A stretch of DNA of 64,000 bases. It comes from Dehalococcoides sp. JdFR-54 (GTDB taxonomy: Bacteria; Chloroflexota; Dehalococcoidia; JdFR-54). Made by a program: the position numbers and the translations under genes. The notes under the pieces are model-generated. The model searched no databases, was not told the origin of the DNA, and saw only the letters and a list, made by a program, of their open reading frames with translations. The stretch covers positions 8,694-72,693 of the forward strand of contig MTNP01000051.1 in NCBI GenBank assembly GCA_002011475.1, written 5' to 3'. Positions 34,025-55,102 of the stretch are shown piece by piece (positions within the stretch are counted from its first letter, which is position 1; the number at the start of each line of letters is the position of its first letter).

Positions 34025-35533
34025 ATGCCAGTAGCTACCAGAGACTCAAGAACAGTATCGCAGATCCTCTTCTGCCGCAAGCGGCAGGTGGACATCTTCC
34101 CCCAGCTTCACGGGGGACAGGAGATCACCTATCCCGCCCGGAGGAACCCAAAGCCCGTGGGCTATCTCTCGGCCATGCTCTGTAAAGCCTGCGTTGTTGC
34201 CCTCAAGGGCGACGTCATCGGCATCACCAGGCTGCAGCCACCGGGAACGGTGATGGTGAGGTCTCTCTCACAATCAGGGAGCGACTTCCATCACTGCTAC
34301 ATGGTGAGAAACCAGGTCTGGCTTCCCAGAGGCAACGTCACCTACCATCTGGGGCTTCTCGCCCTGGCCGAGGGCCTGGCGGGCAAGGAGCAGGCAGTAG
34401 ACCTCCTCGATGCCCTGGAGGAGTTGCTCGCCTATCGCGAGACCACAGGGGCCTCTGACGACAGGCATCTGGAGCTAATGATGCACCTCTGCGACGAGCT
34501 CTACTACTGGGCCAGGTGGCGAGATGGCGACCCATCGAAGGATCCGGAGCGGCTGGACTCACTCCAGATCTTCGATGCTGCCTCCCCGCCCGAGGTGACG
34601 GTGGCCGAGCCCCTGGATCCCGGCGTGCTTACTGACCTGGGAAAGCTCAGGAAGTATCGGAGCGGGAAGAAAGCAGAACTACCTGAAGAGCTGCCTGAGC
34701 GTGCTCTGCCAAAGAGCCGCTTCCGAGGCCCTCAGCTTGCCGAGCTAGTGGAGAGCCTCGAGCTGGGGATGCACTGTCTCCTAGTCGGCCCCACCGCCAC
34801 CGGCAAGTCGCTGTGCGCTTTCGAGGCGTTCGAGAGAACCAGGGTCAAGAAGCCGGTGTTCGTCATCGAGGGCCACGAGTCCCTTAAGGAGTTTGACCTC
34901 CTCGGAGGCTACACACCTGATGGCAAAGGTGCCTTCGCCTGGCGAGACGGCGTCCTGGTTCAGGCGATGAAGGCAGGTGGCTACCTCTTTATCGACGAGG
35001 CTAACCGCATGCCCACCAGGACGCTCAACATCCTGCTGGGAGTCCTCTCCCCGGGAGCGGTGGTGCTCACCGAGCACGGCTCAGAGGAGGTAAAGGTTCG
35101 GGATGGCTACCAGGTGGTCATGGCAATGAACCTCGGCAAAGGCTACGCCATAAACACCCTGGACACTGCCCTCCTCAACCGCTTCTCATGTGTGCTGGAG
35201 TACCGCTACCTCCCCTCCAAGGAAGAGGAGGACCTGCTGGTGAAGGAGACCGGCATCGAGCCGGAGGTCGCCCGCACCATGGTGAAGGTGGCCGGCGAGA
35301 CCAGGAGGCTCAAGCGAAACAAGGAGCTCTCGGGGGAGATCACCCCCAGGGGTCTCTTCGCCTGGGCTGCCAAGTTCAAGGCCAAGAGGGGTAAAACCGT
35401 CCTCCCCAGGCTGAAGGCGGCCGCCAAGGTCACCTGGATGCATCAGGTGGCGGGCACCGATGCCGACGGCTACCTCAGGGAGGACACCATGAACATGCTC
35501 CTTGACCTCATCGAGGCCCACACGGCTAAGTGA
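34025..35533 (+). CDS. MoxR/CbbQ-like AAA+ ATPase with ~220-aa unknown N-terminal domain
   Basis: GPTATGKS, LFIDEANR, AMN, LDTALLNRF, ITPRGL motifs. Confidence 0.88.
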   Translation: MPVATRDSRTVSQILFCRKRQVDIFPQLHGGQEITYPARRNPKPVGYLSAMLCKACVVALKGDVIGITRLQPPGTVMVRSLSQSGSDFHHCYMVRNQVWLPRGNVTYHLGLLALAEGLAGKEQAVDLLDALEELLAYRETTGASDDRHLELMMHLCDELYYWARWRDGDPSKDPERLDSLQIFDAASPPEVTVAEPLDPGVLTDLGKLRKYRSGKKAELPEELPERALPKSRFRGPQLAELVESLELGMHCLLVGPTATGKSLCAFEAFERTRVKKPVFVIEGHESLKEFDLLGGYTPDGKGAFAWRDGVLVQAMKAGGYLFIDEANRMPTRTLNILLGVLSPGAVVLTEHGSEEVKVRDGYQVVMAMNLGKGYAINTLDTALLNRFSCVLEYRYLPSKEEEDLLVKETGIEPEVARTMVKVAGETRRLKRNKELSGEITPRGLFAWAAKFKAKRGKTVLPRLKAAAKVTWMHQVAGTDADGYLREDTMNMLLDLIEAHTAK

Positions 35534-35562
35534 GGAAGAGCAAATAGTTCTTTACTCTAAAA

Positions 35563-35586
35563 AGGGCCGCCAATTGAGGCGGCCCT
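35563..35586. terminator. GC-rich hairpin between the AAA and VWA genes
   Basis: AGGGCCGCC-AATTGA-GGCGGCCCT; the preceding A-run gives a U-tail on the minus strand. Confidence 0.5.
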
Positions 35587-35611
35587 AATTCTTAGAAGGA
35601 GGTATAAAGCA

Positions 35612-37159
35612 ATGGCAGTTCCCTGGTATGAATGGCGAAACGTAAGAAACAGGCTGATCGTCTTCGGCAGGGCTGTGCAGGGCATTTCCCCGTACAGGGT
35701 GCTCATCGAGCCCGATCGCGGCAGGTGCCCCAGCGGCTACTGTAACTTCACCAGGAGGGAGATCGCTGCTAACCCGGGCATTTTCCCCATGCCGCCCAGA
35801 GACCAGTACCAGCTCACCAAGGCCATTCTGGTCCACGAGGCTGGACACCGCCGCTTCACCAGTCCGAACAAGCTCTCACCCCTGGTTCACCAGGTGGCCA
35901 ACATCCTGGAGGACGAGAGGATAGAGAGACAGATGTGCCAGGAGTTCGCTGGGGTGAGGTGGTTGGTTTGGAAGCTGTCCCAGGCCCTCTACCACGAGTC
36001 CCAGCCTATCAATGATAGCTCCGACTCGCCGGGAGAGGTGGTTGCCTACTTCCTCCAGCTTCGCTGGGCGAAGAGGATAGGCCAGCCAGTCAAGGGTGGC
36101 CTATCTCCGAGGAATCAGGACCTCTGGCAGAAGGTCGAGCCGCTGGTCTACCAGGCATGGGAGGCGGAGACCTCTGAGCTTGTGGATCGCAATGCTGTCG
36201 AGATCGTGCGCATCCTGGGGCTCAAGGAACTTGAGATCCCGCGCTGGGTGAAGGATATCCTCGATAGGCTTGGCCCGGCCGAAGGGGAAAGAGCCGAAGC
36301 GGACGGGGCCGAGAGAGCAAGTGGAAAACCAATAGCCAGTGAGTTGGGCGACGAGAGCGGTGAGGAGCCCAAGCCGTTTGACGGAGATGTCCCGCCCAAC
36401 GACAAAAGAGAAGGAAAGGGTCATGAGGCGATCGAGCCGCAACCCTACATCGAACTGGAGGAGAGGGTGATGCCCTTGGTGCAGGAGCTCATCGATGAGC
36501 TCTCCTGGGAGGAGAAGCCCGAGCAGTGGGAACCTGTGGAAAGGGGTGGTAGGCTGTCGGTTAGGGAATACCTGAGAGACAAAAATCGCCCTTTTCTGGC
36601 TGAAGAAGACCGAGGTAAGGCTCCTGCCACCCTGGCGCTCAAGGTGATCGTCGACCACTCCACCTCTTTGAACCACAGCTCCGGTGGGAAGACTAGGATG
36701 GAGTCCATCGCCGAAGCAGTGATGACCCTCCATCTGGTGTGCCTGGAGCTGAGGATCCCCCATGAGGTGCTGGTCACCCCCCAGGCCCTCAAGATCGCCG
36801 GCCTTGAGGCCGGTGAAAGGGGTAAAGCCCTCATCGCTGGCCTTGTCCCCGCTCTTTGTGGTTATGAGGACATGGGGCTGGCGATAAAGACCCACGCTGT
36901 GCCCATGGCTGGATATCAGCAGGATATAAAGCTTGTCCTTTGCCTCACCGACGGCGCCTGCAACGACGCTGACCTGGGGAAGGACGTATGCCTAGCCCTG
37001 AGAGGCAAAGTGGAGGTTATAGGCGTGCTCCTGGATCCGGACGACAGGACCCGGGGCTACGTGGCTCGCATGTTTGGGGAGGACAGGCTCATCGCCTGCC
37101 GCTCCGAAGAGCTGCCCCACAAGCTGGGCAACGTCCTGAGGGCTATCCGGGGCGTCTAA
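35612..37159 (+). CDS. VWA-domain protein with N-terminal HExxH region (CobT/NorD-like MoxR partner)
   Basis: VHEAGH; MIDAS DHSTS; CLTDG. Confidence 0.85.
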   Translation: MAVPWYEWRNVRNRLIVFGRAVQGISPYRVLIEPDRGRCPSGYCNFTRREIAANPGIFPMPPRDQYQLTKAILVHEAGHRRFTSPNKLSPLVHQVANILEDERIERQMCQEFAGVRWLVWKLSQALYHESQPINDSSDSPGEVVAYFLQLRWAKRIGQPVKGGLSPRNQDLWQKVEPLVYQAWEAETSELVDRNAVEIVRILGLKELEIPRWVKDILDRLGPAEGERAEADGAERASGKPIASELGDESGEEPKPFDGDVPPNDKREGKGHEAIEPQPYIELEERVMPLVQELIDELSWEEKPEQWEPVERGGRLSVREYLRDKNRPFLAEEDRGKAPATLALKVIVDHSTSLNHSSGGKTRMESIAEAVMTLHLVCLELRIPHEVLVTPQALKIAGLEAGERGKALIAGLVPALCGYEDMGLAIKTHAVPMAGYQQDIKLVLCLTDGACNDADLGKDVCLALRGKVEVIGVLLDPDDRTRGYVARMFGEDRLIACRSEELPHKLGNVLRAIRGV

Positions 37160-54083: not shown

Positions 54084-54149
54084 GGCAACCTACTAGTAAA
54101 CCAGCGTGAAGGTTTTTTCGAAGGTCTTACTTTTACCTTTCGTCCACGA

Positions 54150-54196
54150 TGGTGAAACCGAATAGGATTCGAACCGACGATTGCCGGTTTACGAAA
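54150..54196 (-). other. Degenerate 3' half of a tRNA (anticodon CGT, Thr-like); att-site relic
   Basis: Minus strand TTTCGTAAACCGGCAATCGTCGGTTCGAATCCTATTCGGTTTCACCA: anticodon loop, T-loop and CCA; 5' half absent. Confidence 0.65.
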
Positions 54197-54322
54197 GTGA
54201 GAAGCTCGGTGGGTAGTTCAGGGGCTGGTACCGTCAAGCATTCGCCATCGGCTCGCTTGGCAGACAGCCAATACGTGCTGAGACGTCAAGATCGTGGTCG
54301 TAACATTTTGGGACCATAGCAA

Positions 54323-55102
54323 GTGATGGGGTCGAGGAGTGACCTGCGGATGAATCCTGACTTCGTGATTGAAAAGCTCAAACCTCATTTCGATGTCCTG
54401 AGATCAGCCATAGTTGAGACGCTTCGCGGCTGCAAAGAGATAGGCTACGTAATAAAGCAAGACTGGTGTCTTGATGGCCCATACTATGGTACGCTGCGGA
54501 GGGTACGCTTGCCAACGGAAGGGGCTTTAGGCGACTTTCACACTCACTTTCCCACTTCCGACACTTGGTCCCCTAGAGATGCAAGCCTCTCAACTCGGGA
54601 TATCGAGCAGGTCATCTCGAACCGTTTGGCCATCGCAGCCATCGGTTATCTGGGGCCCTCTCATGACTTGCGGCTGAGATGCTTTACAACCGACTTCAGA
54701 GGGGCGGTTTTTAAAGAGATGCTAGAAGAGCTTCGCGAAATTGGCAGGATGGAAGAAGAATACGACAGGAAGCTGGCGCGTTTTCGCCCTGCGCTGATTG
54801 AGTGGGAACGTGAGTGGGATCGCCGCTTAAAAGGGACGAAACTCAGTAATCCGAGACCTATTCGGGAGCTTCTTCAAAAGGGGAGGATTCTAAGGCGGGC
54901 CTACGACATGGACAGTGCTGACAGATTAAAGGCTGAGTTAAAGAGACGGAAAGCCAAAATGCATCGTCGAATCACCGCGTATTTCGCGGATATCTTTGAT
55001 AGCGACGAAATAGTATTGTCGGATTCCTGCAACGTGGAGGTTCGGACCCCTCCCCCCCGCCGACCCAGACCACCGAGCTTACACAACCTCTTTTCACGGT
55101 AA
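54323..55102 (+). CDS. JAB/MPN+ (JAMM) metalloprotease-like protein with coiled-coil C-terminus
   Basis: E in KEIGY, HTH in DFHTHFP, LSTRD (SxxD). Confidence 0.72.
   Translation: MMGSRSDLRMNPDFVIEKLKPHFDVLRSAIVETLRGCKEIGYVIKQDWCLDGPYYGTLRRVRLPTEGALGDFHTHFPTSDTWSPRDASLSTRDIEQVISNRLAIAAIGYLGPSHDLRLRCFTTDFRGAVFKEMLEELREIGRMEEEYDRKLARFRPALIEWEREWDRRLKGTKLSNPRPIRELLQKGRILRRAYDMDSADRLKAELKRRKAKMHRRITAYFADIFDSDEIVLSDSCNVEVRTPPPRRPRPPSLHNLFSR

Follow-up and report, generated by a model that had tools for sequence, protein, structure and literature searches.

Among the described systems closest to the genes considered here are the stand-alone proteasome homologues of prokaryotes. Fuchs, Alva and Lupas (2021, PMC8665760) distinguished 22 prokaryotic families of proteasome relatives, none with a known function. 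They found these families without an AAA+ partner and saw 'no genomic contexts ... suggestive of a specific function'; their text brings up neither operons nor inactive paralogues as partners of the new homologues. In this study, we analysed a window of 64,000 nt from Dehalococcoides sp. JdFR-54 (GCA_002011475.1, contig MTNP01000051.1, positions 8,694-72,693 of the forward strand; coordinates below are those of the window), in which an earlier reading of the letters alone, here called the sequence-only reading, had noticed an enrichment of proteolysis genes between 34025 and 55102. The limits of this interval hold, since 34025 is the start of an AAA+ gene and 55102 the stop of an open reading frame (ORF) with a JAMM motif, and the whole interval lies within a mobile island. 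Its protease-like genes fall into four modules: a MoxR-class ATPase with a HExxH-vWA protein (module 1), the proteasome-like pair ProtB-ProtA (module 2), a cassette of the proteasome homologue ProtC with a DUF5678 protein and a retropepsin (module 3), and the JAMM-motif ORF (module 4). We consider it likely that these are four unlinked, separately acquired modules on one island, and not one degradation system.

The evidence that carries this conclusion is comparative. We inspected about 35 loci around relatives of ProtC, ProtA and the retropepsin (given below as L numbers) by tblastn with all 18 island proteins, and no locus carries two of the four modules; the JAMM-motif ORF is absent from all of them. 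Within the island, the modules lie on different strands, differ in GC content and are separated by an IS110 element and a 10-kb DNA-targeting block. Because no other locus combines two modules, a coordinated proteolysis layer is not supported. The sequence-only reading had proposed just such a protein-targeting defence layer and had tied it to the co-occurrence of these families in other islands, and on that count the comparison went against it. The enrichment it described stands as a matter of density, peptidase-like genes making up 6 of 17, by rough estimate well beyond the few per cent to be expected of the genome at large, but the six genes amount to only four independent acquisitions. The modules would lie together because the cargo regions of islands collect small selfish, conflict-type modules, and not because they make up a pathway.

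Could they still form one coordinated layer, in which the AAA+ protein would feed proteasome-like particles, the JAMM, aspartic and metalloproteases would be accessory, and the whole would complement the DNA-targeting block? The density of protease-like genes speaks for it, as do the genuine restriction/HerA/GmrSD block that adjoins them and the position of related proteasome-homologue modules beside defence genes in L024 and L029. We nevertheless regard it as very unlikely: besides the lack of co-occurrence and the split arrangement described above, the AAA+ protein is of the MoxR class and has a vWA partner of its own, and the ProtC cassette has its own promoter and sharp boundaries. Some points weigh against our preferred reading of separate acquisition. 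Only about 35 loci were inspected, many of them short contigs; the two homologue families are very rare (only 44 clusters for ProtC and 107 for ProtA among 5.8 billion proteins) and lie 12 kb apart, which leaves room for a functional relation; and the vWA membership of 35612..37159 and the JAB membership of 54323..55102 were both assigned by motifs only.

The two proteasome-homologue modules and their partners

Module 2 consists of two proteasome-like genes, which are joined here to a toxin-antitoxin-like pair.

40223..40882, minus strand: ProtB, proteasome-like paralogue without the Thr1 nucleophile (hhalign to the ProtA family)
39466..40194, minus strand: ProtA, proteasome-beta-like N-terminal nucleophile (Ntn) peptidase with Thr1, Asp17 and Lys33 (Pfam, AlphaFold2, Foldseek)
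39171..39440, minus strand: small acidic ORF of 89 aa upstream of the PIN gene, putative antitoxin (orthologue in L035)
38740..39165, minus strand: PIN-domain (VapC-like) toxin (Pfam PIN E=7e-11, 43 bits; syntenic with ProtB-ProtA in L035)

All three proteasome-like genes of the sequence-only reading were recovered, ProtA and ProtC above the Pfam Proteasome cut-off of 22.4 bits and ProtB through hhalign. ProtA (E=1.5e-7, 31.7 bits) starts Met-Thr and keeps Asp17 and Lys33 (MTLALA...SDSR...SEK). Its AlphaFold2 (AF2) model, with a pLDDT of 89.4 and a long C-terminal helix, has 20S beta subunits and Anbu as its best Foldseek matches, with TM-scores of 0.73-0.82 against the 20S beta subunits when normalised by target. 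ProtB stays below the Pfam cut-off (E=0.026, 14.6 bits), but a profile of its family, aligned by hhalign, gives probabilities of 99.6% (E=2e-24) with the ProtA family and 97.8% with the ProtC family. Because ProtB begins MGN, and so lacks the Thr1 nucleophile, we predict it to be an inactive (dead) subunit; its relatives also lack the Thr nucleophile.

A ProtB-type gene lies upstream of ProtA in every locus of the closer subfamily (L024, L025, L027, L035 and L037), amid flanks that are unrelated among these loci. The distant ProtA relatives in L038 and L039 lack ProtB, but have an overlapping small downstream ORF. Judged from fold and active-site residues, ProtB and ProtA would most likely form a hetero-oligomeric, self-compartmentalised threonine peptidase, built from one catalytically dead and one presumably competent proteasome-beta-like subunit and needing no dedicated unfoldase. 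Such an inactive/active pair would be reminiscent of the alpha/beta logic of proteasomes.

The PIN toxin is preceded by a small co-oriented ORF and the pair is conserved in L035, the make-up of a type II toxin-antitoxin pair of the VapBC kind. There, the orthologue of the small ORF is 66% identical and in the same position; the ORF of the window had no family match in the Pfam scan. L035 (83% identical) has the four-gene block ProtB-ProtA-small ORF-PIN in common with the window (40893-38771) and nothing else; in this lineage ProtB-ProtA is joined to a VapBC-like pair. The 89-aa ORF was also considered as a partner of ProtA and rejected as such: the small ORFs that follow ProtA relatives are not similar to each other, and it therefore belongs with the PIN gene. 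Next after the block in L035 (2845-3849) comes an SDH_protease gene (SppA/ClpP-like serine protease), of a protease family different from any in the window. On the other side of module 2, a 205-aa ORF without a family match (41132-41749) occupies a segment of 46% GC upstream of ProtB; the L035 block, whose upstream flank is short (about 185 nt), has nothing there that aligns with this ORF.

Module 3 is a cassette of 1.6 kb (52451-54083).

52457..52486, plus strand: promoter-like site of the cassette, TTGAAC-18-TATACT with TG (promoter scan; conserved in L029)
52539..53288, plus strand: ProtC, proteasome-beta-like Ntn peptidase, catalytic residues complete (Pfam Proteasome E=8.4e-15)
53254..53679, plus strand: DUF5678 protein, overlapping the ProtC stop by 35 nt (Pfam DUF5678 E=2.8e-12)
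53670..54083, plus strand: retropepsin-like aspartic protease with a DSGA motif (Asp_protease_2, 24.4 bits against a cut-off of 24.3)

ProtC scores 55.4 bits against the Pfam Proteasome model; its matches to archaeal beta and alpha subunit models are far below the cut-offs of those models. It starts Met-Thr and keeps the Asp17, Lys33, Gly-Ser-Gly and Asp166 positions. In 23 relatives Thr1, D18, K36, GSG and D186 are conserved, with D18 and K36 invariant and Thr1 directly after the start codon in nearly all. The distribution of ProtC relatives is patchy, the more distant ones occurring in archaea and several bacterial phyla. The aspartic protease of the sequence-only reading is likewise present, if by the narrowest of margins over the family cut-off; its DSGA motif is invariant in 4 orthologues, and a metagenome scan with the retropepsin alignment returned one close relative only.

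The cassette recurs in L006, L029, L032 and L001, each time with different flanks. L006, L029 and L032 have the same three genes at 87-96% protein identity. Nucleotide similarity to L029 begins at 52451, 88 nt upstream of ProtC, and similarity to L006 and L032 ends at the retropepsin stop codon (54069-54083), beyond which everything differs. L001, at 57% identity, carries the cassette between purM and purH, with DUF5678 and retropepsin joined in a single protein of 283 aa (8710-9561). This fusion argues that the two work as one unit; they are separate in the window, L006 and L029, where they overlap by 4-10 nt (10 nt in the window). With its own promoter and overlapping genes, the cassette would be translationally coupled, and this coupling together with the L001 fusion points to a physical and functional link within ProtC-DUF5678-retropepsin. 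The Ntn peptidase would most likely act on, or be restrained by, its downstream partner. We found no paper that discusses the function of DUF5678.

Distant ProtC relatives lack DUF5678 and retropepsin, and a small, usually overlapping ORF of at least two sequence classes then follows. In L013, L019, L020 and L021 (Alphaproteobacteria, Bacteroidota) this small ORF is conserved and an IS1-family transposase comes next (about 6000-7900 in L013, L020 and L021; 4840-7052 in L019), and in the archaeal loci L002, L003 and L008 other DDE transposases take that place. Transposons may carry the proteasome homologue along. An equation of the N-terminal extension of the DUF5678 protein with the archaeal ORFs of about 45 aa was rejected, as a hidden Markov model of the archaeal ORFs does not detect the window protein and position only is conserved.

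The retropepsin can be set beside the clan AA retropepsin APRc of Rickettsia (PMC4140852), with which it shares a single lobe of about 135 aa, the DSGA motif and presumably a homodimeric state. Unlike APRc-type proteins, it is cytoplasmic, with no signal or membrane part evident, and it is genetically coupled or fused to DUF5678 and a proteasome homologue.

How do these modules compare with the canonical systems? The Pup-proteasome (PrcA/PrcB) is likewise encoded by two genes for an inactive and an active proteasome-type subunit of about 220-240 aa each. The island differs from it in having no Mpa/ARC, Pup, PafA or Dop gene, and ProtB, in the alignment, has no alpha-type N-terminal extension; the only AAA+ protein of the island is of the MoxR class. 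HslVU, Anbu and BPH resemble the island proteins as stand-alone beta-type Ntn peptidases without a propeptide, and Anbu is among the best structural matches. Anbu genes have ATP-grasp, alpha-E and transglutaminase-type genes as operon partners, whereas none of these has a Pfam match in the island. Against the NCBIfam model 20S_bact_beta, ProtC reaches 36 bits (cut-off 191.9) and ProtA has no match; the ATP_dep_HslV equivalog gives 16.7 bits (cut-off 157.75), and the window has no HslU-type gene. With scores this far below the cut-offs and the partner genes absent, the proteasome homologues of the island are outside the Pup-proteasome and HslVU systems.

The absence of conjugation genes noted by the sequence-only reading was confirmed at the Pfam level: E1 (ThiF-like), E2, beta-grasp ubiquitin-like (Ubl), Pup and PafA had no match in any scanned ORF of the island and its flanks, small ORFs included. 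A hidden ubiquitin-like gene was considered in a 52-codon frame at 52375-52533 that ends in ...RVRGG, the only intergenic frame ending in GG. It was rejected: the frame has no Met and lies in the promoter region of the ProtC cassette, where the conserved -35/-10 elements and the ribosome-binding site are found, and indels of 1 and 2 nt relative to L029 rule out coding.

With the homologues of Fuchs et al., ProtA and ProtC share the proteasome-beta fold, Thr1/Asp17/Lys33, the lack of a propeptide and a patchy occurrence in bacteria and archaea, as well as similarity to both alpha and beta subunits, a long C-terminal helix and the want of a dedicated AAA+ protein. By distribution, similarity and helix, it is most plausibly the widespread (WPH) and helical-insertion (PHI) groups that they resemble. 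What sets them apart from these homologues is the dead paralogue upstream of ProtA in the closer subfamily and, for the ProtC type, the overlapping downstream ORF, in this lineage extended to DUF5678 and retropepsin.

The neighbourhoods of the related modules bear on what the modules might do. They include defence-type genes (DndH/HerA-like in L029, an HKD+Snf2 gene in L024, SIR2-like in L006), toxin-antitoxin genes and transposases (IS1, IS240 and MULE-type), and for some copies housekeeping genes (L001, L025, L030). Because their neighbours elsewhere are defence-type genes and transposases, a conflict-related role for individual modules is plausible, and the pattern suggests a conflict or addiction role for each proteasome-homologue module. 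Against a conflict role stand those housekeeping neighbourhoods and two negative results: in PADLOC-DB 2.0, ProtA, ProtB, ProtC, DUF5678, the retropepsin and the JAB-like ORF have no match, and collections of viral contigs and plasmids held no relative of ProtC, ProtA or the vWA protein. We found no publication connecting proteasome homologues with defence against phages.

In its most specific form, such a role would make each module a protease-based toxin-antitoxin or abortive-infection system, with the Ntn peptidase as the effector and a partner that restrains it until a trigger arrives: ProtA would be held back by the dead ProtB, and ProtC by the small or DUF5678 protein. Compact operons of 2-3 overlapping genes with a promoter of their own would suit this, as would the sporadic distribution over bacteria and archaea, the company of IS1/IS240/MULE-type transposases, toxin-antitoxin genes and defence genes, and the recurrence of a small downstream ORF, in two sequence classes, in ProtC-like loci. 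Set against these are the want of PADLOC, phage and plasmid matches, copies in housekeeping contexts such as purM/purH in L001, and the failure of the archaeal small-ORF profile to detect the window protein; on balance we hold this reading to be possible, though rather unlikely.

The same housekeeping neighbourhoods would fit ordinary accessory peptidases of proteostasis that happen to be carried on the island. Fuchs et al. (2021, PMC8665760) proposed such a role for stand-alone, ATPase-independent homologues, and for their 22 families saw neither an AAA+ partner nor a telling context. We think this improbable, given the patchy, horizontally transferred distribution, the repeated linkage to transposases and defence genes, and the conservation of dedicated partners (ProtB, the small ORF, DUF5678-retropepsin).

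The putative MoxR/vWA pair and the JAMM-motif ORF

Module 1 opens the interval and probably includes a further gene upstream.

33476..34021, plus strand: helix-turn-helix (HTH) protein encoded 3 nt before the MoxR gene, the probable first gene of the module (weak HTH_17/MerR matches)
34025..35533, plus strand: MoxR-class AAA+ ATPase (AAA_5 E=5e-20, CbbQ_C, PDB, phrog_249)
35612..37159, plus strand: HExxH (zincin-like) and vWA-like protein, putative partner of the MoxR ATPase (motifs; phrog_459)

MoxR ATPases and their vWA partners are remodelling or metal-insertion machines, as in CbbQ/CbbO, NorQ/NorD and CobS/CobT. The ATPase of the island scores 72 bits against AAA_5 and 24 bits against CbbQ_C in Pfam, has midasin, NorQ, CbbQ and CobS as relatives in the PDB, and matches the CobS-like phrog_249 (E=7e-31); its N-terminal region of 240 aa is uncharacterised. 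The protein encoded next to it carries HEAGH at aa 75, the MIDAS (metal ion-dependent adhesion site) motif DHSTS at aa 348 and LTDG at aa 446, the latter two 98 aa apart, which is a vWA-like spacing, and weakly matches phrog_459 'peptidase' (E=2e-4). Neither of its domains has a Pfam, NCBIfam or PDB match, so that of the HExxH-VWA protein seen by the sequence-only reading the motifs stand and a family assignment does not. In PADLOC the vWA protein has no match and the MoxR ATPase a negligible one only (E=0.007).

These matches place the AAA+ protein in the vWA-partnered remodeller class and not in the proteasome-feeding PAN/Mpa/Cdc48 or HslU types, so that listing it among the proteolysis genes misleads: the gene call of the sequence-only reading was sound, its proteolytic role was not. 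Module 1 would be a remodelling pair of the CbbQ/CbbO, NorQ/NorD or CobS/CobT type, in which the ATPase, to judge from its class and the adjacency of the genes, would act on or through the vWA protein. Like described MoxR-vWA pairs, it has an AAA_5 ATPase with CbbQ_C followed directly by a protein with MIDAS (DxSxS) and TDG motifs, and phage CobS-like and 'peptidase' PHROGs match the two proteins. Unlike them, its vWA and HExxH domains fall below any Pfam model and the ATPase carries its long N-terminal region. Conflict systems with vWA and MoxR components, in which a metallopeptidase domain is rarely fused to the vWA component, were described by Kaur et al. (2020, PMC7159879); the island pair differs from these in having no VMAP third component.

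Module 4, which closes the interval, is a single gene.

54323..55102, plus strand: orphan ORF with an N-terminal JAB/JAMM-like motif and a C-terminal coiled coil (motif only)

The motif, E38...H73-T-H-x7-S-x2-D, occurs once in the six-frame translation of the whole window. In its order and spacing it is the E...HxHx7SxxD metal-binding motif of JAB/JAMM proteins such as Rpn11, RadC-like proteins and CBASS Cap3. The ORF differs from these in giving no significant sequence, family, profile or structure match in the Pfam and PDB searches (a JAB-type PDB peptidase gives E=0.4 at best in the profile search), in lacking a Ubl, E1 or E2 partner and in its C-terminal coiled coil. It has no homologue in an index of 5.8 billion proteins and only 2 partial relatives among 1.8 billion representative proteins, both of which share the Glu, HxH, Ser and Asp. 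A single-sequence AF2 model has pLDDT <40 for residues 1-128, so that no fold can be read from the N-terminal domain, and helices at 125-226 with pLDDT 70-94. Of the JAMM protease reported by the sequence-only reading, the full motif is there and significant kinship with a JAB family is not; module 4 would be an orphan JAB-like protein.

A JAB-like gene on a mobile element, with a complete JAMM motif that is conserved in the three known relatives, could be taken for counter-defence, in which this protein, and perhaps the other proteases, would remove or break down the Ubl-type conjugates that host or phage systems like CBASS Cap2 or Bil produce. The sequence-only reading had offered counter-measures against conjugation systems as its second proposal, and we found no evidence for action on Ubl or Pup conjugates. 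Since JAB homology lacks statistical support, this orphan ORF has no context that is conserved and no Ubl, E1 or E2 gene is nearby, this is the least credible of the explanations weighed here and would surprise us greatly.

The island and its other cargo

The 21 kb considered above are the cargo of an integrative, mobilisable element of 30.8 kb in tRNA-Gly(CCC). The element has the following further features.

25702..25750: attL-like direct repeat on the left, duplicating the 3' part of tRNA-Gly (49 nt, 96% identical to 56530-56578)
26193-28466: type IV coupling-protein gene
29171-29734: truncated second integrase (187 aa, catalytic domain only)
30923-31765: Replic_Relax gene
37541..38593, minus strand: IS110-family transposase between modules 1 and 2 (Pfam Transposase_20 and DEDD_Tnp_IS110)
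42208..52382, plus strand: DNA-targeting block of a type IIG restriction-methylase, a phospholipase D (PLD)-like protein, a HerA-like ATPase and GmrSD (PADLOC, Pfam)
55304..56404, minus strand: tyrosine integrase of the island, abutting the tRNA gene (Pfam Phage_integrase E=4e-36)
56531..56605, minus strand: tRNA-Gly(CCC), the integration target, with the right repeat (56530-56578) within it (ARAGORN; repeat)

About 30.8 kb lie between the flanking 49-nt direct repeats, inserted at tRNA-Gly(CCC), with the coupling-protein and relaxase-type genes as mobility genes. The GC content of the island is mosaic, with blocks from 46% to 61%, and the flanks are housekeeping in character: cysteine synthase, thiolase and an ABC transporter on one side, PEP synthase, dGTPase, DnaG and RpoD on the other. 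One island gene has its nearest relative in a metagenome-assembled genome of the Dehalococcoidales. Metagenome contigs aligned on it show that the same island is present in subsurface and marine samples. Several other contigs from these metagenomes join exactly at the positions 25702-25750 / 56530-56605, which suggests empty sites or other inserts in the same tRNA gene.

Apart from the protease-like modules, the island carries HTH regulators, HicA/HicB, an MNT gene with a split HepT, the VapBC-like pair, IS110, and the type IIG restriction-methylase, HerA/mad8-like ATPase and GmrSD/HEC-05-like nuclease. At 29171-30430 the truncated integrase adjoins the MNT gene, whose HepT partner is broken into 29916-30092 and 29737-29883 and lacks its middle part, as if an older element had left a remnant here or a toxin-antitoxin pair had decayed. 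Between the vWA and IS110 genes a 46-nt unit is tandemly duplicated (37370-37461, 98% identical), and may be an IS110 end or target structure.

The DNA-targeting block that the sequence-only reading had placed alongside the proteases is indeed there, as context outside every protease module. The stretch 42021-52382 comprises an HTH_17 gene, the type IIG restriction-methylase (PADLOC REase_MTase_IIG, 3e-85), a 655-aa protein that weakly matches PLD (HKD-like), a HerA-like ATPase of 989 aa that matches mad8 of MADS, and GmrSD (DUF262 and HNH), for which the match is HEC-05. Together they may make up a MADS-like or composite system.

Implications for the proteasome relatives

Altogether, the island shows that similar-sounding genes clustered on one element need not form a pathway. 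Its interest for the proteasome family lies in the partners of the two homologues, which appear to be previously undescribed in both modules. At least two proteasome-homologue lineages have fixed partners, an inactive paralogue in one and an overlapping small ORF in the other, here extended to DUF5678 and retropepsin, and both behave as mobile cassettes that land beside restriction, HerA, SNF2, toxin-antitoxin and transposase genes. These two rare lineages are good entry points for the function of the family. One tentative idea, to which we give only modest credence, is that stand-alone proteasome homologues of this type act as effectors in mobile modules for addiction or abortive infection, a new protease-based class that would move from genome to genome with transposases and come to rest in defence islands; if true, this would be the first function for these enigmatic proteasome relatives.

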